This document shows, piece after piece, positions 3,150 through 61,336 of a stretch of DNA of 64,000 nt. Both the position numbers and the translations under genes were made by a program. Every line of letters begins with the position of its first letter. Position 1 is the first letter of the stretch. The DNA is from a phage, in assembly GCA_021525805.1 (NCBI GenBank), contig GCA_021525805.1_3940.1. The stretch is one strand, 5' to 3'. A model generated the notes under the pieces. It made no database searches. It was not told the DNA's origin and worked only from the letters and a program-made list of their open reading frames with translations.

Positions 3150-4800
3150 TAATCAACGCAGCGGGGCTAAATAGCCCCAGATACCTTTACAGCCCCTTTC
3201 CCATATAGATTCGATAGAGTCTATCTCATAGGGGCTTTTTTACATCCTATCAAATCCCTTATACAACCCTTTCCCTTTCCTTTCCAGAATCTTATCAGAC
3301 CTTAAAAAGCAATAACTCTATAGTCTACTCTATAGCCTTTTATCAAATCAACTTAAATATAAGCCCATAACCCGAAAGGGAAGGGCAACCCCTTAAACGC
3401 TCTATAACGCTCTATAACAGCCTTATCAACCTAACTTAAAGGATTGCATTACCTCACCCTTAAAAGCCCTTTATAAAGCTTCCCAGAGCCTTAAAAGAAT
3501 CTTATAAGGGTATAAGCTTATAGGCTGACTAGTATCTTGTGAATGGTTAAACAAACCCCTTGATAGTCATTAAAAAGCATGTTATAGGGGCTATGAAGTT
3601 ACTTTGAAGTAGCTTAAAAGTTACGTAAATGCTAGCCCCCTTAACATTTTCTTAACAATTTCTTAACAAACCCTACATAGTTATGCTTTTAAGGCACTTG
3701 TTAGCAACTTGTTAGCCCCTTGTTAAATCTCTGTTAAGACCACGTAAAAGCCTTGTAAGAGTCTTTGACATAGCCTTTAAAGCCCCTGTAAAGCCCTATA
3801 AAGAGCTATCTGTACAGTTGGGCTGTAGTTACTAGGGAGAGACTTAAAAGGGGCTATACAGAGCTATACAGAGCTTTTAAGAGGTATGTTTAAAGAATCA
3901 CTAAGAAAGGAAAGGGAACGATAAGAAAAGAGTAGTGACCATGTTAATAGCTTGTTAAAAAGATTAAACACTTGTTAGGAACTTGTTAATTATCTTAACA
4001 AAATAACTCTTAAAAATTAACTTGTTAGCTCTTGTTAGTCATCTGTTAAGACTCTGTAAAGGCTATGTATCAACTGTTAAGAAATTGTTACAGCCTTGTT
4101 AGTTCTGTTAAGAAACTGTTAAGACCTCTGAAGAGTTGTTAAGAAGATGTGAGAACTGTTAAGAGATTGTTAAGGATATTTTAAAATTTTGCAAAGGGGG
4201 TGTTAAGGAGCTGTTAAGGGCTACCAAGCAGATATACATCCTAGACAGATATTTTTCAGTGCCTTCAAAGACCCTAAAAAATGACTTGATAGCCCTATTT
4301 TATAAAAATTTTAAGATTCTGAATAATTACCTATACAGTCTTTTAAAAATACAGGTAATAACAGGTTTATAAGATACCTTGTTAGTACCGTGTTAGACCT
4401 TGTGAGATAAGGTCTGTGAAGACATTCCTGTTAAGTTTGTTAAAACAGTCTATATAGAGGCTTAGTAATACCTAGTGAACACCTATAGAGAGTCATCTAT
4501 GTAACATAGAGATTAAGAGGTGTATAGGAGCTTCTAAGAGTGTGTAGAGAGATGGTTAAGGTGATTGTATAGGCTGTTAAGAAGGCTTGTTAGAAGAGTG
4601 TTTAGAAGGATTGTTAGAGGGCTAGTTAGAAGGGTTATACAGAGGGCTATTAAGACCACTAGATAGTTACTAAGATACTATATAGCACTATATAACTATA
4701 TAGAGAGTAAGATTAAGAAGGTTGTTAAGAAGGATAGATATTTTGTTCACATATGATGGTGACCCAGAGGTTGGGACAACCGATAAAATTTTATAAAAAT
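3150..4800. repeat. ORF-free repeat-rich region (phased TGTTAAG/TTGTTAG-type short repeats plus other short direct repeats and hairpins)
   Basis: no ORF of 60 aa or more on either strand; dozens of copies of CTGTTAAGA / CTTGTTAG / GGTTAAGG often about 10-11 bp apart, densest 3690-4740; also CTATAACGCTCTATAAC, CTATACAGAGCTATACAGAGC. Confidence 0.8.
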
Positions 4801-4836
4801 TAAAAAGCCCCCAATTAAGGAGGCTCTTAAGATATT

Positions 4837-5388
4837 TTAAATCAGTGTTTCCAGAACTGTCTTCAGTGATGACTTGGTTGTCTGATAAAAATGAGTGAAT
4901 CCATTGTTGTTATCGAACACCTGCATCATGATATCATCTCCCTTAATTGGGTACACTCGGATATCATAGTGAAAACCATTAAAGACAGCAGAACCATTAC
5001 AGAATGCACTAAAATCATCCACTGAGATGTACTCTTCATGACCTGTGATTTTTATACAAACGCCTTTACTCGGTCTCTTAGGGTTGATATCTTCCATCAC
5101 AGACATACTCTGTCCACCAAGAGATACCATAGTGACCACTTTACGGTTCTTCTGTCTAAAGTACATCTTAACTTTCTGCAAAGTATCTTCATAGAACGGA
5201 TAAGACTTCTCTACAAAGATTCCTTCTAATGGCTCTTTACCATTTACAGTCTCCCTGTTATGACGTACTGAGAAGATAAGTTGTCTTAGTACGTCAAGAT
5301 TTTCTTCGGAAAGTGCTTCTCGAACATCACTCCAGTCAAGTACTAGGTAGTTACCTTCAACTTCTTTTACATCTTTAAAAACTTGCAT
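4837..5388 (-). CDS. hypothetical protein
   Basis: 183-aa ORF, first gene of minus-strand block. Confidence 0.6.
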   Translation of the reverse strand: MQVFKDVKEVEGNYLVLDWSDVREALSEENLDVLRQLIFSVRHNRETVNGKEPLEGIFVEKSYPFYEDTLQKVKMYFRQKNRKVVTMVSLGGQSMSVMEDINPKRPSKGVCIKITGHEEYISVDDFSAFCNGSAVFNGFHYDIRVYPIKGDDIMMQVFDNNNGFTHFYQTTKSSLKTVLETLI

Positions 5389-15873: not shown

Positions 15874-16030
15874 CCTAATAAGATTTTAAAGCCAAGCTTC
15901 ATTCGGATGTTGCTTTGGTATCCCTCGTGTATTGTCGTACACACTGATAAAGCACCTAGTAGGTGTCACGGAGAAGAGATAATATCAAGCTCTCCAAAGG
16001 TTCTAGTCACCGGATTAAACAAGACTATGC

Positions 16031-16053
16031 AAAGACCTTTTTAGGTCTTTTTA
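16031..16053 (+). terminator. putative rho-independent terminator
   Basis: AAGACC-TTTTT-AGGTCTT followed by TTTT. Confidence 0.55.
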
Positions 16054-16131
16054 GAGGGCTTCTAAGGTTATTACAGCTTGTTGTGGAACCTTGTTGCTTA
16101 GGTTCTTAGAAGTTCTCTAAAAAGATTTAAT

Positions 16132-16209
16132 GGGAGATTGACGGTAATTGGTAAACCTATCTCGCTTAGAACGAGATGTTTGAGGGTTCGAATCCCTTGT
16201 CTCCTACCA
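16132..16209 (+). tRNA. tRNA with anticodon TAG (Leu-type anticodon, short variable arm)
   Basis: acceptor GGGAGAT/GTCTCCT, anticodon arm TCTCG-CTTAGAA-CGAGA perfect, T-arm GAGGGTTCGAATCCCTT, A73, CCA encoded. Confidence 0.6.
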
Positions 16210-16216
16210 AATTAAT

Positions 16217-16292
16217 GCAGGTGTAGCAAAATGGTTATGCGGCTGACTCTTAATCAGTAAGACGATGGGTTCAATTCCCTCCACCTGTACCA
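16217..16292 (+). tRNA. tRNA-Lys (anticodon CTT)
   Basis: acceptor GCAGGTG/CACCTGT; anticodon arm GCTGA-CTCTTAA-TCAGT; CCA encoded; paralogue of the TTT copy. Confidence 0.7.
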
Positions 16293-16298
16293 GATATT

Positions 16299-16373
16299 GG
16301 GGATGTAGTTTACATGGTTAAAACATAAGTTTTGCAAACTTAAGTACAGGGTTCAATTCCCTGCTTCTCCACC
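16299..16373 (+). tRNA. tRNA-Cys (anticodon GCA)
   Basis: anticodon arm AAGTT-TTGCAAA-AACTT; T-arm CAGGGTTCAATTCCCTG; CCA encoded. Confidence 0.65.
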
Positions 16374-16380
16374 AATTAGT

Positions 16381-16455
16381 GCATCCATAGTTTAAACGGG
16401 AAAATTACAGTCTTCCAAACTGAGGTTGAGGGTTCGATTCCCTCTGGATGCTCCA
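16381..16455 (+). tRNA. tRNA-Gly (anticodon TCC)
   Basis: acceptor GCATCCA/TGGATGC perfect; loop CTTCCAA; T-arm GAGGGTTCGATTCCCTC; CCA encoded. Confidence 0.75.
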
Positions 16456-16461
16456 AACAAT

Positions 16462-16538
16462 GCTGCTTTCGTATAATTGGCTATTACACATCCCTTGTAA
16501 GGATGGAAATGCAGGTTCGAGTCCTGTGAGCAGCACCA
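16462..16538 (+). tRNA. tRNA-Thr (anticodon TGT)
   Basis: anticodon arm CATCC-CTTGTAA-GGATG perfect; T-arm CAGGTTCGAGTCCTG; CCA encoded. Confidence 0.75.
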
Positions 16539-16540
16539 AT

Positions 16541-16632
16541 TCAGAGGTCAAGTGAAAGACCGCTGGTGTCAACTGAAGACCGTAACAAATTCCACGGAGT
16601 TGAGTTAGCGGCACAACTTCAGACCTCTTTCA
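16541..16632 (+). ncRNA. candidate structured RNA S6 (outer helix AGAGGTC/GACCTCT enclosing about 75 nt with box-like GAAGACCGT)
   Basis: nested complementary segments CTGAAG/CTTCAG, GTTG/CAAC; no tRNA T-loop; no ORF. Confidence 0.35.
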
Positions 16633-16633
16633 T

Positions 16634-16708
16634 ACTCGCTTAGTTTATATGGTAAAACATCACCCTTACAAGATGAAGAAAAAGGTTCAAGTCCTTTAGT
16701 GAGTACCA
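16634..16708 (+). tRNA. tRNA-Val (anticodon TAC)
   Basis: acceptor ACTCGCT/AGTGAGT, loop CTTACAA, T-arm AAAGGTTCAAGTCCTTT perfect, CCA encoded. Confidence 0.65.
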
Positions 16709-16709
16709 T

Positions 16710-16787
16710 GTTCCAGTATCCCAATTGGCAGAGGATGCAAGCTCAAACCTTGTATTAGTGACGGTTCGAATCCGTCTTGGAACACCA
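16710..16787 (+). tRNA. tRNA with anticodon CAA (Leu-type anticodon, short variable arm)
   Basis: acceptor GTTCCAG/TTGGAAC; D-loop AATTGGCAGA; anticodon arm GCAAG-CTCAAAC-CTTGT; CCA encoded. Confidence 0.6.
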
Positions 16788-16805
16788 ATTTAAAGAGGCT
16801 ATTTA

Positions 16806-17363
16806 ATGAGATATTTGAAGTATGCTTCATGGATTTTCTTAGCTTTACTAGACCCAATTGCAGCAACCCTAGCAGTTATCTTAGCACCTTTCGTAGTTCC
16901 ATTCTACAGTGAGAAGAAAGGGCATCTACCTTTTGGATTCAGATGGATGGAGACCTATGACAACCCGATTGATGGTGATAAAGGCCACGTTGAGAGATGG
17001 GCTAAGATTAGAAAGATTGGTAAGCTCGGTGTTTATATGCAGAGAGTTGGATGGCTCTGGAGAAACAAAGCTTATAACTTCTCTTACCATGTATTAGGAA
17101 GAGATGTAAAAGATGTTACTAAGTGGAAAGGCAATATCAACGTAAGTTCTGACCCTGAAGATAATCAGACTGGTTATCTCCTAATGTGGAACAGCAATGC
17201 TTGGGGATTATTCGCTTTTATCCCATCAATTAAAGTCTTTGGTAAACAATTTTACTGGAGAATTTATGTTGGGTGGAAACTAAAAAGTGTTGTCCCAGAA
17301 GAAAGAGCATTCTCAAGGGAAAGAGTTATGTTGGCATTCTTTATTCATCCACTGAGAAAGTAA
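16806..17363 (+). CDS. hypothetical membrane protein embedded in tRNA array
   Basis: 185-aa ORF with AAGAGG RBS; N-terminal TM segment WIFLALLDPIAATLAVILAPFVV. Confidence 0.6.
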   Translation: MRYLKYASWIFLALLDPIAATLAVILAPFVVPFYSEKKGHLPFGFRWMETYDNPIDGDKGHVERWAKIRKIGKLGVYMQRVGWLWRNKAYNFSYHVLGRDVKDVTKWKGNINVSSDPEDNQTGYLLMWNSNAWGLFAFIPSIKVFGKQFYWRIYVGWKLKSVVPEERAFSRERVMLAFFIHPLRK

Positions 17364-17371
17364 AGATTTAA

Positions 17372-17447
17372 AGGGGATTAGTTTACAAGGTTAAAACCTC
17401 GGTCTTTGAAATCGAAGAAGTTGGTTCAATTCCAACATCCCCCGCCA
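17372..17447 (+). tRNA. tRNA-Gln (anticodon TTG)
   Basis: anticodon arm TCGGT-CTTTGAA-ATCGA; T-arm GTTGGTTCAATTCCAAC perfect; CCA encoded. Confidence 0.65.
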
Positions 17448-17449
17448 AT

Positions 17450-17528
17450 GCTCCATTACTCCAATTGGCAGAGAGGCCAGACTTAAAATCTGTGTTATGT
17501 ATCGGTTCGAATCCGATATGGAGTACCA
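17450..17528 (+). tRNA. tRNA with anticodon TAA (Leu-type anticodon)
   Basis: acceptor GCTCCAT/ATGGAGT; D-loop AATTGGCAGA; loop CTTAAAA; T-arm ATCGGTTCGAATCCGAT perfect; CCA encoded. Confidence 0.6.
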
Positions 17529-17533
17529 AATTT

Positions 17534-17609
17534 AGCGGTATAGCATAACTGGCAATGCAACAGTCTCTGAAGCTGTCCTATTAAGGTTCAAATCCTTATG
17601 CCGCTGCCA
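17534..17609 (+). tRNA. tRNA-Gln (anticodon CTG)
   Basis: anticodon arm ACAGT-CTCTGAA-GCTGT; T-arm TAAGGTTCAAATCCTTA perfect; CCA encoded. Confidence 0.65.
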
Positions 17610-17640
17610 CTTCTAAGGGTTCTTACGAGAGTCCTTAAAT

Positions 17641-17716
17641 GTGGCCTTATCATAAATGGTAATGACCCATGCTGTGAACATGGTCTATACGGGTTCAAAT
17701 CCCGTAGGTCACCCCA
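17641..17716 (+). tRNA. tRNA-His (anticodon GTG)
   Basis: anticodon arm CCATG-CTGTGAA-CATGG perfect; acceptor GTGGCCT/AGGTCAC; CCA encoded. Confidence 0.75.
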
Positions 17717-17722
17717 ATTTAT

Positions 17723-17798
17723 AGTCCAAGTAGCTTATATGGTTAAAGCGCGTGTCTGAAAAACATGAGAAGAGGGTTCAAATCCCACTGGACTACCA
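17723..17798 (+). tRNA. tRNA-Phe (anticodon GAA)
   Basis: anticodon arm CGTGT-CTGAAAA-ACATG; T-loop TTCAAAT; CCA encoded. Confidence 0.7.
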
Positions 17799-17814
17799 AT
17801 TTCAAAGGTGCTTA

Positions 17815-18549
17815 ATGAAAGAGATGACAGAACAAGGTAAGGAGATTTTTAATCTCTTAAAAACCGGTAAAGGGTTTTCTAACCCACTTATTACTGGTGC
17901 AGCAGTTCTCGGTGGAACCGTAGCTGCCTCAACATCACTTATAAGCTCTATTAGCTCTGTAACAGACCCTACAATGAAGGAGAAGCTTGTTGCTGCTGGA
18001 CTTACAACAGTCCTTCTAAACAGCTTTACAACAAGCCTGACAAGCACTACAGCAACTACTAAGACCCTAACAGACTATGGTCAAAAGTCTATTGATGAGT
18101 TTTCATCACGTATGCAGGTAGCAAAGGGATACTCCAATGTTATGGGTGCAGCAGGAGAACAAGTTGGTTGTACACCATTCAGTGGTATTATGGGTGTTGC
18201 TACAGAATATGGTCAAAAAGCTATTGACATGATGAACAGTACACTAGATAGTGTTAATGGTGTGTTAAGTGACTTACAAGATGCTATTGATAAGGGTCTT
18301 GATACTGTTTCTGATTTGGCTAACCAAGCTGTTAGCAAGATTAATGAAGGTATCTCAAAGATTACAGCTTATGCAGATGAAGTTGTGCAGATGATTGAAG
18401 AAGAAGCTGCCCTTATTGCAGAGTACCTTAAAACGAATATCAATGGGTTCTTAGCAGGTATCTTACCAGACTGGTTTGATGATGCTTGTAAAACTGGTGT
18501 AATCGACACTATTGCAACACCAGAAATGAAGAACGCATTGCAGAAATAA
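17815..18549 (+). CDS. hypothetical Ser/Thr/Ala-rich protein (start refined from track ORF 17752..18549)
   Basis: track ORF starts at GTG inside tRNA-Phe; ATG at 17815 lies just past the tRNA; stop abuts tRNA-Ser. Confidence 0.55.
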   Translation: MKEMTEQGKEIFNLLKTGKGFSNPLITGAAVLGGTVAASTSLISSISSVTDPTMKEKLVAAGLTTVLLNSFTTSLTSTTATTKTLTDYGQKSIDEFSSRMQVAKGYSNVMGAAGEQVGCTPFSGIMGVATEYGQKAIDMMNSTLDSVNGVLSDLQDAIDKGLDTVSDLANQAVSKINEGISKITAYADEVVQMIEEEAALIAEYLKTNINGFLAGILPDWFDDACKTGVIDTIATPEMKNALQK

Positions 18550-18550
18550 T

Positions 18551-18643
18551 GGAAGATTAACCCTAAAAGGTAAGGGAGCAGTTTGCTAAACTGCCAGTAG
18601 CTGAGAAATCGGTGTACCAGTTCAAGTCTGGTATCTTCCTCCA
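18551..18643 (+). tRNA. tRNA-Ser (anticodon GCT), long variable arm
   Basis: 93 nt; acceptor GGAAGAT/ATCTTCC perfect; anticodon arm GCAGT-TTGCTAA-ACTGC perfect; T-arm ACCAGTTCAAGTCTGGT; CCA encoded. Confidence 0.75.
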
Positions 18644-18647
18644 ATTT

Positions 18648-18723
18648 GAATCCGTGACAGAAATGGCTATGTGCCTGTCTGCAAAACAGGTTTATAAGTG
18701 TTCAAGTCCCTTCGGATTCTCCA
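18648..18723 (+). tRNA. tRNA with anticodon GCA (second Cys-type copy)
   Basis: acceptor GAATCCG/CGGATTC perfect; anticodon arm CCTGT-CTGCAAA-ACAGG perfect; CCA encoded. Confidence 0.6.
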
Positions 18724-50240: not shown

Positions 50241-50474
50241 TCATAGCAACTCCAGAATATCAATACGTTCACCATTAAGAACACCTGTACGGTCTCTTGC
50301 AATCTTACCATCAACGATAAGGATATGCGCGACCTTTAAAGCCTCACGATTAAAACCTTTTAAGAACTTGCTAGGCATCACTACAATGGACATCTCCTGA
50401 ATCAACTCTGGAGTATAGCAATTGTCGTGAAGTTGCTGAATAACGTCTGCAAGTGTCATTTTTGATGTCTCCAA
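50241..50474 (-). CDS. hypothetical small protein
   Basis: 77-aa ORF. Confidence 0.45.
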   Translation of the reverse strand: METSKMTLADVIQQLHDNCYTPELIQEMSIVVMPSKFLKGFNREALKVAHILIVDGKIARDRTGVLNGERIDILELL

Positions 50475-50665
50475 TACTCAATATCAATAAGTTCTTGTGC
50501 AATGCTTTTCAGATTACCTTTCAAGAAAACCTTCTCAGAACCTGAAAGAGATGAATTGTCAATTAACCTGTTCATTCTCTCAAACAACTTCTGCTTACGA
50601 TTCTTGATAGTTTCCTTTGAAGCACCTTTCATCATCGCTGCATGGGTTCTTCCACGGTGACTCAT
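50456..50665 (-). CDS. hypothetical small basic protein
   Basis: 69-aa ORF. Confidence 0.45.
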   Translation of the reverse strand: MSHRGRTHAAMMKGASKETIKNRKQKLFERMNRLIDNSSLSGSEKVFLKGNLKSIAQELIDIEYWRHQK

Positions 50666-50716
50666 AAGTCCTCCTATACAAGATATAGTATAAGGTACTC
50701 TTCCCTGAGCACCTTG

Positions 50717-51250
50717 TCAACTTAGTTTTGCAAACTCTCCGTGGAGTTTGATAGCAGCTTCACAGTAAGCTTTATGGGCTTCTTCAGGGGTGTCATGGTG
50801 ACCTAAAAACATCTTCTTACCTTTATAACTTATCTGTGCGACCCACTTACCAGACTCCTTCTTAAGACTTACACCCTTGTACCCAGATTTATTGGTGACT
50901 GGTTTACCTTTATTCCAAGCACTTTGAAAGTCATCTGCTTCCCTTAAGTTTACAATCCTGTTGTCAAGTGAGTCTCCGTTGATATGGTCAATGATACCTT
51001 TTGGCATCTTGCCATACACGTAAAGCCATGCGAGTCTGTGTGCTTTATGTGCTTTCTTGCCAAAATAGATACTAATCTGTTTATGACCACTTGAATCAGT
51101 CTGGATATTACCTGCCACCTTTCCTGCATAATTACTGTTAAAAACACTAACAGCTCTTGATTTACCTTCTCTACGAAGCCAAGTAAAGACCCCTGTTTCG
51201 GGGTCATAGTGCAGCAGCTCCTTTAAACGTTTTTGTAAAATTAAATCCAT
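50717..51250 (-). CDS. HNH homing endonuclease with AP2-like DNA-binding domain
   Basis: 177 aa; HRLAWLYVYG ... DHINGDSLDNRIVNLR (HNH) then SGYKGVSLKKESGKWVAQISYKGKKMFLGHHDTPEEAHKAY (AP2-like). Confidence 0.8.
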   Translation of the reverse strand: MDLILQKRLKELLHYDPETGVFTWLRREGKSRAVSVFNSNYAGKVAGNIQTDSSGHKQISIYFGKKAHKAHRLAWLYVYGKMPKGIIDHINGDSLDNRIVNLREADDFQSAWNKGKPVTNKSGYKGVSLKKESGKWVAQISYKGKKMFLGHHDTPEEAHKAYCEAAIKLHGEFAKLS

Positions 51251-51253
51251 TAA

Positions 51254-53983
51254 TCAATGTACCTCCAACCAGCTCTTGCCAACCTTTGCTGTACCAGTTA
51301 CAAGTGTTTCTTTCCTCAAACCTAAGTTTTTTGAAGCTTGTCCATACATCCAGTCAGCAATTGCTTTCATATCCTGTGTCATACCCTCTGGACATTCCCA
51401 ACTATTTTCATCGTGATATGCCAGAAGTAACCTTGCTCCGATAGCTGGTTTTCGAGCATTCAGTTTTGTCAGGCCATCTTCACAGGCTTTTCTTGCTGCT
51501 AGGTTGATGGCCTCATTCTGAATCTGTGCTTCCGAACTCATCAGGAGGTAGTTCAGTAGTTTATGTGGAGATTTGCACCATATCCATGCTCCAGCGACCC
51601 TGATATAACCACCTTTAGCAATTGAAGAATTCTTCCCAAAAACCTCTTCCAGAGCCTTTTTAGACGCCTTAAAATCGGCTTCTAAGCTATCAAGTAACTT
51701 CTTAATCTTTGGCAGACGCATATAGTAAGTTTGTTTAGTCAATGCACCCTCTTCCGTAGATGATGCCTTGATAGTTTTTGCAAACTTCTCGTCTCCGGCT
51801 CCAAATAACAGGGCGTAGATGCCATTTTTGCTCTTCTTACGACCTTTTGTAATCTCGTGAAGAAGTTCCTCATCCTGTGTCTCCCTGCAACGAACAATAT
51901 CCTCTTCTTTGTTAAGACCAAAGTAAATACTGTTCAGTGTATGCGCATCAGTCCCTGTGTAGACTTCATAGAGGTCATTTTCAGCATCATAACGCAGATA
52001 CTTGTCAGTTTCTGGGTTAAGATACTTGTCAAGATGTTTACAGTAGTATCTACCATCATCTTGCTTAGTGAACTCCACTGACTCTTTACCCTCAGTTACC
52101 GCTTTAGTGAAGTCTTCATCACCCATAAAGTTACAAAGGAGAACTAGCTGGGCTGAGTTTTGGTCAACAGAAACAATGTTAGTCCCCTCTTCACAAATCC
52201 ACACTGCCCTCATAGGTGCTCCGTAGACAGCAGCACCAGACGGTACGTTTACAATACCATACTGTGTCATACGTCCAGTTGAAGTACCAAACACCATTGC
52301 ACCAGCACTAAGGCGACCATCAGGACGAATCTGGTTCAACCAACCTTTTTCATCATCCTTTGAGTTCTCAATAGTTCTGCGTCGGTGCATCAAAGTATAG
52401 TATTTAGCAATCTTCTGTCCAAGCTCACCTTCAATTGTATCATAAGATGATTCAGTAAGCTTTGGTGAAGTACGGATTAAGCAAGGCTCAAGCAAATCTG
52501 TGTATTTCTTCACAGACCAGTTATGCTCAATGTACTGTACACCTTCATGCTCAACATAGCTCAAACCACACCGCTCAACCATTTCCTGCCACTTAGGATG
52601 CTTTGTAATCATCTTTTTATTGTCTTTGAAACGACAAACCTTAACAGGACGACCATCTGAGTCTTTCTTGTAGTTCCAGTCATCTGGAATCCAACCAACT
52701 GATTTCAAGTAGTCTTTAACAACTGCTACCTGAGTCATACGAGAAACTTCGAACTCAATTGGTGTATATGGTGCATCAATCAAACCTGTGTAGCGACTTG
52801 ACTCAAGTTCAAAGTGATTGACAACGTGACTGTTATAGTACTTCACAGTCTTGACTGTTTTTACTGGTTTCCAGTCTTTGCATTTTTTGCCAATCTTTGC
52901 ATTCAACTCGTTGCAGATTGCACGAGCATCCTTCATTGCTACAAAGCCTTCCTTGTATTCTTCACCAGTTACAGTGTTGGTTGGCGTATAGCAATTCCTT
53001 TTTTCAATGTTAAAAATCTTTGTAGTTGGCTTACCAAATGGCTTGATTTCATATGTCTGCATCTCACCGTTACGTACCTGCTGACGATACTTTGTCTTAG
53101 GGTACTTGGTAATTCTTTTCAGTCCATCTGCATGACCGAATGTTTCAACATACTCATTCCAAGCTTTTGCAAACTCTTCTCCAGTGACTTTACCTTTGGT
53201 CTTAATAGTTGGAGGTAGATGTGGTTCAACCTCTGAAGCAAGCTCATTAGTCAACTTGTCAAGTTCCTTTACATGGAACTCCATAAGCTCTTTATCAGCT
53301 TTCCAGCCATTGATAGCTTGTTGACTCATCCAGAAAGATGTTTCTTTAGCTCGCATGTAGGTTTCATAAGTGTCTATGCCACACTTCTTAAGCTTGAGAT
53401 ATTCATTATCAAGTGCCCGTTTAGTTTTGGCGTTAATACGGATATCTTCTACAACACGAGTGAAGATTTCTGCATTCCACACACCCCAATGTTCAATCTC
53501 TGGTTTACGAACACCAACACGAGCACCCCATGCAGCCAAACCATGAGCACCTTTATAACCCTTTGGAGTTGGTCTATCCATCCACTGAACACGAGACTGG
53601 ATAAGAGAATCCTGAAAGAAATTACTCCACGGTTTACACTTTGGATTATCAAAGTTCCATAAATCAGGTGCAATGTGATTGAAAACCCACCAGTCATAAC
53701 CGAGGCCGTTATGGATGCAAAGTCGTTTTGCCTTTAACGCAAACTCAACACCTTCACGTAAACCACCCTTGATGTACTTAGTGTACTTGTGACCGAGGAT
53801 AGGCTCATCTGTAAAGACCCATACAGGTGGCTCTTCATCGTCAGATTTATAATCTGCGAAAGCCATTACGTGCACTTTAGTGAACTCAAGGAGTAAACCA
53901 TCAGTTTCTGTATCACCAACTAAATGTAAGTTTTTAAAATCTACGTTTTCCATTTTTACTCCCTCTAAAATCATTAACCTCAT
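51254..53983 (-). CDS. DNA polymerase, family A, with 3'-5' exonuclease domain
   Basis: 909 aa; N-terminal exo motif VGDTETDG; motif-B-like KKSKNGIYALLFGAG; motif-C-like LLLAYHDENSWECPEG. Confidence 0.8.
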   Translation of the reverse strand: MRLMILEGVKMENVDFKNLHLVGDTETDGLLLEFTKVHVMAFADYKSDDEEPPVWVFTDEPILGHKYTKYIKGGLREGVEFALKAKRLCIHNGLGYDWWVFNHIAPDLWNFDNPKCKPWSNFFQDSLIQSRVQWMDRPTPKGYKGAHGLAAWGARVGVRKPEIEHWGVWNAEIFTRVVEDIRINAKTKRALDNEYLKLKKCGIDTYETYMRAKETSFWMSQQAINGWKADKELMEFHVKELDKLTNELASEVEPHLPPTIKTKGKVTGEEFAKAWNEYVETFGHADGLKRITKYPKTKYRQQVRNGEMQTYEIKPFGKPTTKIFNIEKRNCYTPTNTVTGEEYKEGFVAMKDARAICNELNAKIGKKCKDWKPVKTVKTVKYYNSHVVNHFELESSRYTGLIDAPYTPIEFEVSRMTQVAVVKDYLKSVGWIPDDWNYKKDSDGRPVKVCRFKDNKKMITKHPKWQEMVERCGLSYVEHEGVQYIEHNWSVKKYTDLLEPCLIRTSPKLTESSYDTIEGELGQKIAKYYTLMHRRRTIENSKDDEKGWLNQIRPDGRLSAGAMVFGTSTGRMTQYGIVNVPSGAAVYGAPMRAVWICEEGTNIVSVDQNSAQLVLLCNFMGDEDFTKAVTEGKESVEFTKQDDGRYYCKHLDKYLNPETDKYLRYDAENDLYEVYTGTDAHTLNSIYFGLNKEEDIVRCRETQDEELLHEITKGRKKSKNGIYALLFGAGDEKFAKTIKASSTEEGALTKQTYYMRLPKIKKLLDSLEADFKASKKALEEVFGKNSSIAKGGYIRVAGAWIWCKSPHKLLNYLLMSSEAQIQNEAINLAARKACEDGLTKLNARKPAIGARLLLAYHDENSWECPEGMTQDMKAIADWMYGQASKNLGLRKETLVTGTAKVGKSWLEVH

Positions 53984-59820: not shown

Positions 59821-60867
59821 ATGGAGAAGTACACATTAACAAAACTTCCCGATTCAGTTACACATGTTTTTATTGACTCTGACAGTATTGCCTATAAAGG
59901 TGCTTGTGTAGTTGAGAAAGCAAAGTATAAATATGTCAATAAACTCACAGCAGAAGAGTCTGAACCATTTGATAATGCGAAAGATGCTGCAAGATGGTTA
60001 GCAGACCAGAGAATCCTTGTGGAAGAGCTTGGCCTGACATTTGATGAAGATGAATGGGAAAGACAGACTTGGAAAGAAGCTAAGAGTGAAAAAGAAGCTA
60101 TCATGGCTACTCAACAGGTGCTTCAGGAATGGCTTAAGGTTGTTGGTAAAGAAAGAACTTGGGTAGGTTATTTAACAGAGAAGGGTGTGCATAAACATAA
60201 AGACATTAAAGGTCTTGAGCACCAATATCAAGGTAATCGTAAAGATGCTGTCACACCAACACACTTAGTTGCTTGTCGTGAGTATCTTCTGTCAAGACCA
60301 GAGTTCAAATTGATTCTTGATGGATTTGAAGCTGACTCTATCGTAATTGCTAAAGCTGAAAAGATGGGTAAAAAGGCTGCCTTAATGAGTATTGATAAAG
60401 ACCTTCGACAAGCTGAAGGGACTTACTGTATTGATATGACTTATGAAAAGTCGCCTTTGATTTTCATTGCTGATAACAACGTTGGTGAAATTTGGGATTG
60501 TCCAATAAAATCGACACCAAAAGCTAAGAAGACAGTTGGGGTAGGTTTTAAATTTCTTTGTTACCAAGCTGTGGCTGGTGATAATGCGGATAACTATTTT
60601 GGTTTAAAGGGCGTTGGTAAGGCTGCTGTAATGAAAGCCCTTGAAGGTAAAACTACTTACAAAGAGTGTCTTGATGCTATCTATGAACTTTATGCTAAGA
60701 AAGAGTCATACACTTATGTCTCGTGGGATGGTCAAACAATTACCAGAACACCTTTAGAGTTAATGCAGCAACACTTTTTCTTAGCTTATCAGGAAAGAAA
60801 CAAGAAAGACGATTTTACTTTTGATAAGTATGGGTGGACACCAAATGTTAACTCAACAAACTCTTAA
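59821..60867 (+). CDS. 5'-3' exonuclease / flap endonuclease (FEN, RNase H-like)
   Basis: 348 aa; Asp-rich N-terminus VFIDSDSIAY; helix-hairpin-helix-like AGDNADNYFGLKGVGKAAVMKAL. Confidence 0.6.
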   Translation: MEKYTLTKLPDSVTHVFIDSDSIAYKGACVVEKAKYKYVNKLTAEESEPFDNAKDAARWLADQRILVEELGLTFDEDEWERQTWKEAKSEKEAIMATQQVLQEWLKVVGKERTWVGYLTEKGVHKHKDIKGLEHQYQGNRKDAVTPTHLVACREYLLSRPEFKLILDGFEADSIVIAKAEKMGKKAALMSIDKDLRQAEGTYCIDMTYEKSPLIFIADNNVGEIWDCPIKSTPKAKKTVGVGFKFLCYQAVAGDNADNYFGLKGVGKAAVMKALEGKTTYKECLDAIYELYAKKESYTYVSWDGQTITRTPLELMQQHFFLAYQERNKKDDFTFDKYGWTPNVNSTNS

Positions 60868-61336
60868 AGAGTACCTACATTATGACCCCGAAACAGGGGT
60901 CTTTACTTGGATTAAGAAGTCTGCTAGACACACAAAAATTGGCTCTGTTGCAGGTACAAATTTAAAAGGTTACACCAGAATTTATTTGTTTGGTAAGGGC
61001 TATTATGCACATACACTAGCTGTTCTGTATATGGATGGTTACCTCCCTGAGTGTGTTGACCATAAAAATCATGTAACACTAGATAACCGCTGGGTAAATC
61101 TTAGAGCATGTACGTTATCAGAGAACCAATGTAATAGATTGCTCAATAAGAACAATAAATCAGGTGTTAAAGGTGTGTACTACAAAAAACAGTATGGTAA
61201 GTGGTCTACACAGATAACTTTTAAGAAGAGGGTCTACTTCTTCGGCAACTATGACACTATTGATGAAGCAGCAGAGGTTGTAAATAGGGAACGTCAACGT
61301 TTACACAAAGAGTTTGCTAATAAAGGTGATGAATGA
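60845..61336 (+). CDS. HNH homing endonuclease with AP2-like domain (start refined from track ORF 60821..61336)
   Basis: paralogous to 50717..51250 (LHYDPETGVFTW ... DHKNHVTLDNRWVNLR ... SGVKGVYYKKQYGKWSTQITFKKRVYFFGNYDTIDEAAE); ATG at 60845 has GGTGGA RBS. Confidence 0.75.
   Translation: MLTQQTLKEYLHYDPETGVFTWIKKSARHTKIGSVAGTNLKGYTRIYLFGKGYYAHTLAVLYMDGYLPECVDHKNHVTLDNRWVNLRACTLSENQCNRLLNKNNKSGVKGVYYKKQYGKWSTQITFKKRVYFFGNYDTIDEAAEVVNRERQRLHKEFANKGDE

Follow-up and report, generated by a model that had tools for sequence, protein, structure and literature searches.

An HNH-AP2 gene beside the Felixounavirus DNA polymerase gene is a predicted free-standing homing endonuclease in a variable insertion slot

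Gene organization at the polymerase locus

The window, by which we mean the whole 64,000-nucleotide stretch of phage DNA analysed here, carries on its minus strand a family-A DNA polymerase gene, followed directly by an ORF for an HNH-AP2 endonuclease and by a short conserved element that marks the far end of this insertion. The features of the locus are the following.

51254-53983 (-): gene for the family-A DNA polymerase, one uninterrupted ORF of 909 aa; hits to DNA_pol_A and to phrog_17 'DNA polymerase'
51254-52094 (-): polymerase 3' block of ~840 nt, 'W' haplotype, which travels with HNH-A; defined by a drop in identity
51810-51811 (-): position at which relatives have an intron (polymerase nt 2173/2174, within motif B, KNGIYA^LLFGAG); empty in the window
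51251-51253 (-): 3-nt spacer (TTA) from the polymerase TGA to the HNH ATG, read from the junction sequence
50717-51250 (-): HNH-AP2 endonuclease ORF ('HNH-A' allele), 177 aa, ATG start, TGA stop, stop codon included
51188-51205 (-): terminator-like hairpin GACCCC-GAAACA-GGGGTC followed by TTTACTT, codons 16-21; found in both HNH-AP2 genes of the window
51071-51250 (-): N-terminal region, aa 1-60, with a YDPETGVFTW motif; invariant alignment columns
50912-51049 (-): HNH catalytic core, aa 68-113, with D88-H89, N97, N101 and N113; Pfam HNH_3, invariant columns and the I-HmuI profile
50738-50887 (-): AP2 DNA-binding domain, aa 122-171; Pfam AP2 and matches to solved plant AP2/ERF domains
50666-50720 (-): conserved ~50-nt element (TTGACAAGGTGCTCAGGGAAGAGTACCTTATACTAT...AGGAGG), the right-hand insertion boundary; present in 26 of 26 loci

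Of the 263 GenBank phage records that match this region, nearly all are Felixounavirus, and the closest share 94-96% identity with it across 4.7 kb; on these identities we assign the window to Felixounavirus (Ounavirinae, Felix O1-like). The same endonuclease protein is present at 93-99% amino acid identity in about 40 GenBank phage records (98.9% in the best match), where it is annotated as an HNH or homing endonuclease, and 3,541 phage records contain more remote homologues. Two GenBank records named for Campylobacter phages (MG065664.1 and MG065668.1, 'Campylobacter phage A132/A126') carry the Felixounavirus polymerase/intron/HNH-A locus at 93-97% identity, and their labels likely reflect mislabelling or mixed assemblies. 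A second gene with HNH_3 and a weak AP2 match, ~44% identical to the first, lies directly after an exonuclease gene at window positions 60845-61318 (+); the corresponding CDS of PQ064465.1 is annotated as 'NAD synthetase', probably a mis-annotation. Elsewhere in the window 21 tRNA genes (Rfam tRNA) are clustered at 13890-18720 (+), as expected for Felix O1-like phages.

The original prediction placed the ORF three nucleotides beyond the family-A polymerase gene on the minus strand, and the junction indeed reads ...GTA CAT TGA tta ATG GAT..., with a GGAGG within the last polymerase codons 11 nt before the endonuclease ATG. The description of the gene as free-standing also holds, as it has its own start and stop codons, involves neither an intron nor an intein, and leaves the polymerase ORF uninterrupted. 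TGA-TTA-ATG happens to be in frame, and a polymerase-HNH fusion made by stop-codon read-through was considered and rejected as a coincidence; the frame of the endonuclease relative to the polymerase varies among lineages, some of which overlap the polymerase stop in other frames. A scan for sigma-70 promoters around the endonuclease gene gave nothing above shuffle expectation.

Domains, active site and selection

Both of the domains that had been claimed, an HNH motif and an AP2-like domain, score above their gathering thresholds in hmmscan searches of Pfam: HNH_3 (PF13392) at residues 69-104 (54.5 bits against a cut-off of 24.8, E 9e-15) and AP2 (PF00847) at residues 122-171 (46.3 bits against 33.3, E 5e-12). 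The 177-residue product also matches phrog_99, 'HNH endonuclease', in PHROGs (E 9e-72). Since both domains exceed curated thresholds and the ORF recurs in the ~40 GenBank phage records, the ORF call is far beyond chance.

A search of the PDB with the single sequence returned AP2 structures only, and a match to I-HmuI required a profile. The alignment used comprises seven alleles from related loci and the second window paralogue, at 44-86% identity to the query. With the allele profile, the AP2 part matches WRI1 (7WQ5) at E 4.8e-11 and the structures of TEM1, ERF096 and AtERF1 at E 1e-4 to 3e-6, and the allele/paralogue profile matches I-HmuI (PDB 1U3E) at E 4.5e-7. D88, H89, N97, N101, L102, R103 and N113 are invariant across the alignment, and D88/H89/N97/N101/N113 pair with D74/H75/N83/N87/N96 of I-HmuI. 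In I-HmuI, H75 is reportedly the general base, and D74 and N96 the metal ligands. The point on which the prediction could have failed was the HNH catalytic residues, and these are present, invariant and aligned to I-HmuI. An AlphaFold2 model built from a two-sequence alignment has low confidence (mean pLDDT 44, below 50 in the HNH region, where a beta-beta-alpha-metal fold is expected); in this same model the AP2 part has three strands (124-132, 135-142 and 145-152) and a helix (155-175) at pLDDT 58-66.

The N-terminal region shares the conservation of the domains, with Y15, D16, P17, G20 and V21 invariant in the allele and paralogue alignment and the YDPETGVFTW motif found in 71 of 80 homologous loci from other phages; it is probably an extra DNA-contact module. 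Its coding sequence also contains the hairpin listed above, with a matching one in the second HNH-AP2 gene of the window at 60884-60901 (+). The hairpin has a dG of -15 kcal/mol with its flanks (z -3.7). Its stem is invariant at the nucleotide level in every Felixounavirus allele and in the paralogue, despite protein identity as low as 44%, and its loop varies (GAAACA, GAAATA, GATACA or GACAAA). In homologues from other phages the DPxxGV peptide is kept but only three to five of the six stem pairs are. The hairpin may hold down endonuclease expression, as an attenuator or terminator, or it may mark a gene-conversion tract.

Within the A family of alleles (see below) dN/dS is 0.13-0.17 at dS of 0.5-1.4, and the endonuclease ORF is under purifying selection, with dN/dS about 0.15. 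The ORF is intact in all 17 related loci that carry an insertion at this position, with no frameshifted copy among them.

An insertion slot between the polymerase stop and a conserved element

The comparison of the region downstream of the polymerase covered 26 loci, which are phylogenetically non-independent: that of the window, two from GenBank records and 23 from IMG/VR contigs. Six further loci and summary counts supplement this sample. The slot is empty in nine of the 26 and occupied in 17, where the insert measures 481, 508, 531 or 533-534 nt and belongs to one of at least four HNH-AP2 lineages: an A family made up of the window type and variants at 86, 83 and 73% identity, and three others whose proteins are 47-54% identical to that of the window. 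The last ~75 nt are near-identical in all slot lineages.

The cassette has exact boundaries, with the polymerase stop on one side and a conserved TTGACA element on the other. This element begins TTGACAAGGTGCTCA... and is conserved whichever gene comes next; the distance from the polymerase stop to its start is 5-6 nt where the slot is empty and 481-534 nt where it is filled, and the HNH stop codon TGA overlaps its TTGACA. It occurs once in the window. An 8-bp hairpin (AAGGUGCUC...GAGUACCUU) is contained in it, together with a second small hairpin beside the AGGAGG ribosome-binding site. The element may act as a transcript end, as a processing site or in translational control. An adjoining 69-aa ORF 3' of the endonuclease (window 50456-50665, minus strand) has no Pfam match and is itself polymorphic for presence or absence, being missing in L004, L014, L016, L017, L019 and L022-L024.

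Comparison of the window with locus L022, which has the same polymerase haplotype and a 508-nt lineage (B508) instead of HNH-A, reveals a clean cassette swap, whose two breakpoints precede the polymerase stop by ~25 nt and the HNH stop by ~75 nt. The cleanness of this swap indicates that short conversion tracts are possible. Relatives lacking the insert had been proposed as a means of defining the homing site, and they fix the insertion point to the nucleotide; the insertion site of a free-standing endonuclease need not equal its cleavage site. Taken as a whole, the slot has the pattern expected, as judged from these alignments, of a site invaded repeatedly by free-standing homing endonucleases.

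A mosaic polymerase gene

Within the main clade the polymerase gene is 94-97% identical over its first ~1890 nt, with pN close to 0 and pS about 0.15. From nt ~1890 to the stop codon the gene resolves into deep haplotypes with pS of 0.6-1.0 and pN of 0.04-0.2. The W block of the window is 73-76% identical to every other Felixounavirus haplotype, those of a distant clade included, whereas the alternative 'C' block is 86-88% identical to the distant clade, which is about the genus-level distance. Because C retains this genus-level similarity, it is W that looks imported, from outside the sampled diversity, and the C-terminal third of the polymerase, with motifs B and C, appears to be chimeric. 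A search of the phage database for the donor of the W block found none, the other Ounavirinae being only 66-70% identical. The lineage with 481-nt inserts (B481) is accompanied by a different foreign block, at 66-69% identity.

Endonuclease and block are associated. In the 26-locus sample all six A-family alleles at 86% identity or above are on W, and all seven main-clade empty sites are on C. GenBank holds 54 records with the W block at 90% nucleotide identity or above and 56 with HNH-A at 80% amino acid identity or above. The sample has no HNH-A on a C polymerase background and thus no documented case of recent homing into the empty allele that is common. The endonuclease gene therefore lies right at the border of a segment exchanged laterally, a situation described in general terms for phage nuclease genes (Barth et al., PMC10448857).

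We conclude that the ORF is very probably a free-standing HNH(HNH_3)-AP2 homing endonuclease gene, a selfish cassette in a dedicated slot. The homing reading offered in the original prediction draws support from the domains, the catalytic residues, the precise presence and absence of the insert and the mosaic flank; cleavage and homing themselves are predictions. The gene would be transcribed with the polymerase gene or just after it. Through AP2 and its YDPETG-bearing N-terminus, the product would recognise a particular site in Felixounavirus genomes that co-infect the cell and are devoid of this allele, and the HNH active site (D88/H89 plus N113, with one divalent metal) would nick or cut the recipient DNA. 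Recombinational repair with the endonuclease-carrying genome as template would then give the recipient the cassette along with adjoining polymerase 3' sequence. The gene appears to be dispensable and selfish, and to stand outside the replication machinery.

For the target we lean slightly towards the polymerase 3' ~840 nt, which contain the motif-B intron site; the empty junction between the polymerase stop and TTGACA is a less probable candidate, and a site elsewhere an unlikely one. Divergence around the cassette is asymmetric, foreign upstream and conserved downstream, and it is this asymmetry that favours a cut in the polymerase 3' third, although it could equally be explained by where homology permits crossovers rather than by where the enzyme cuts.

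Group I introns in related polymerase genes

No group I intron is present anywhere in the window. In phage pSJ21 (L002, 3305-3572) a 268-nt intron (Rfam RF00028, 61.7 bits against a cut-off of 50) interrupts motif B, 559 nt upstream of the polymerase stop codon, and its removal in silico restores the 909-aa polymerase frame. The intron occurs at 90% identity or above in 96 GenBank Felixounavirus records and takes three forms: 268 nt and ORF-less, 311 nt (43 nt longer), and 805 nt with a 160-aa Endonuclease_7 ORF. Loci that carry it include pSJ21, L024 (EC6, 4489-5294 region) and L110. The 160-aa ORF is present within the intron in 41 records, the others having the ORF-less or the 311-nt form. 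Annotations of these relatives usually betray the intron only as two 'DNA polymerase' CDS. The genome note of phage Mushroom records a split polymerase without naming an intron (PMC4392139), one paper lists 'two introns' in phage SPJ41 without further comment (PMC9951933), and the Felix O1 paper describes six HNH genes and no introns (PMC3185647). A description of it as an intron of the polymerase gene was not found in the searchable literature on these phages.

Some endonuclease VII introns accompany an empty slot, and at least 12 GenBank records combine such an intron with a free-standing HNH gene. Mutual exclusion of the intronic endonuclease VII and the free-standing HNH, suggested by the first eight loci, was accordingly discarded. 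In VpaE1 (L109, 2627-3087) two overlapping CDS are annotated for the endonuclease VII ORF of the intron, which appears frameshifted, a sign that the intronic enzyme may be decaying in some lineages.

These introns raise the question of collaborative homing in trans, in which HNH-A would cut at or near the motif-B intron site and mobilise both itself and the ORF-less intron, the window representing an 'endonuclease only' stage. The concept is established for free-standing endonucleases beside intron-bearing genes (PMC3984707, PMC2790892, PMC10448857), and several features of the relatives fit it: a motif-B group I intron whose removal restores the frame, the co-occurrence of ORF-less intron and HNH-A in 33 GenBank records, and an occupied slot in every ORF-less-intron record inspected (L002, L023, L106-L108, L110 and rows H242-H260). 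Furthermore, in L002 and L023 the W background gives way around the intron to ~85 nt of C-like sequence, which we read as a co-conversion tract. We nevertheless consider this reading rather unlikely. The window has no intron, nor do ~23 of the HNH-A records (56 minus 33); the intron's own endonuclease VII-type ORF (41 records) is enough to explain intron mobility; the records that have both an endonuclease VII intron and a free-standing HNH show that the two are not complementary; and linkage over 559 nt yields co-occurrence under any model. At the intron site pS is 0.9, against 0.6-1.0 across the block, with no site-specific signal of target escape. The notion that the window intron site is a specific escape variant, with eight of nine codons synonymously different, was dropped for the same reason, the whole 840-nt block being equally saturated.

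Barth et al. (PMC10448857) described another route, by which the arrival of a free-standing endonuclease relaxes selection on an intronic one, leading to its decay. The split endonuclease VII ORF of VpaE1 is consistent with such decay, and on our analysis relaxed selection would fit the data equally well as a role in trans-homing.

It is improbable that the gene is a domesticated or exapted nuclease that excludes competitors, degrades host or rival DNA, or regulates neighbouring genes through AP2. Purifying selection at a dN/dS of ~0.15 denotes usefulness, not necessarily homing, AP2 domains are transcriptional silencers in some phage proteins (bioRxiv 10.64898/2026.02.23.707548), and active homing and domestication are inseparable by bioinformatics alone (PMC10448857). 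Yet the gene is dispensable, its slot being empty in nine of 26 close relatives, and is replaced at the same position by lineages of 47-54% identity; searches with its protein gave zero matches in NCBIfam and among the PADLOC defence models, and retained catalytic residues are ill-suited to a pure regulator. Finally, that HNH-A is a decaying remnant, inactive at the end of a cycle of invasion, fixation and degeneration, is very improbable, for although decay is seen nearby in relatives (the split endonuclease VII ORF of VpaE1, and the 311-nt and the fully ORF-less 268-nt forms of the intron), the ORF here is full-length with all catalytic and AP2 core residues invariant, its dN/dS is low, and no frameshifted copy exists among the occupied loci.

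The preferred reading thus remains that of a free-standing homing endonuclease cassette. A broader proposal, which we put forward as doubtful, is that the Felixounavirus polymerase locus forms a natural series of all stages in mobile-intron formation and turnover, in which HNH-A, by cutting close to or at the motif-B intron site in the last third of the polymerase gene, would mobilise the ORF-less intron in trans and drive the import of foreign polymerase C-terminal segments, and the Felixounavirus-specific hairpin of codons 16-21 would act as an attenuator of endonuclease expression. The stages seen are an empty slot, HNH-AP2 only (the window), an ORF-less intron with HNH-AP2, and an endonuclease VII intron with or without a free-standing HNH.

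Relationship to known homing systems

The combination of HNH and AP2 is known from other homing endonucleases, and genes that encode it tend to group next to those of DNA polymerases (PMC10448857, which cites Magnani et al. 2004 for HNH-AP2 enzymes from phages, cyanobacteria and protists). The IPA-HNH genes of ICP1 and other phages (Barth et al. 2023) resemble the window gene in being free-standing, in having an N-terminal HNH and a C-terminal AP2, and in their enrichment beside DNA polymerase genes at a boundary of genetic exchange. The ICP1 IPA-HNH domains are reported as too divergent for Pfam HNH_3, whereas the window protein matches HNH_3 directly (PMC10448857). Closer still are the HNH or homing endonucleases of the Felixounaviruses bumzen, L27, vB_EcoM_ULIM9, pSJ21 and HY02, which are the same gene in the same position at 93-98.9% amino acid identity; relative to these the window copy is one more allele, with nothing substantive different. 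Felix O1 has a different endonuclease lineage in the same slot.

I-HmuI of Bacillus phage SPO1 shares with the window protein an HNH_3 core and also targets a phage family-A DNA polymerase gene. It is, however, reportedly encoded by a group I intron, with other C-terminal DNA-binding modules and no AP2, and is said to be a strand-specific nickase. T3 gene 5.3, together with the intronic I-TslI of PhiI, is said to be a case of collaborative homing, as reportedly is cyanophage F-CphI. Both systems are like the window in having a free-standing HNH gene directly 3' of an intronless family-A polymerase gene and relatives with a group I intron in a conserved polymerase motif. They differ in that the intronic enzyme of Felixounavirus is of the endonuclease VII type and unrelated to HNH-AP2. 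T4 MobE is a free-standing HNH endonuclease beside an essential gene that mobilises itself and a neighbouring intron in trans; that intron has a defunct endonuclease, and MobE does not cut at the intron site (Wilson and Edgell 2009, PMC2790892). MobE is a good model for the relatives that combine HNH-A with an ORF-less intron, differing in its host gene (nrdB), in a zinc finger rather than AP2, and in having been demonstrated experimentally.

Significance

The gene is already known, being annotated in dozens of GenBank genomes, and its architecture, position and behaviour have all been described for phage homing endonucleases; for the window, our result mainly confirms the existing annotation. 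The locus-wide picture in Felixounavirus seems not to have been written up in the searchable literature, and it illustrates published concepts without changing them. Some 260 sequenced Felixounaviruses, many of them candidates for phage therapy or biocontrol, vary at the polymerase locus, in the endonuclease lineage, in the splitting of the polymerase by an intron and in the C-terminal third of the polymerase. This variation explains the recurrent annotation of 'DNA polymerase' twice over, including the split noted without explanation for Mushroom (PMC4392139). The polymerase locus is a tractable system, in phages of E. coli and Salmonella, for models of trans-homing and endonuclease turnover.
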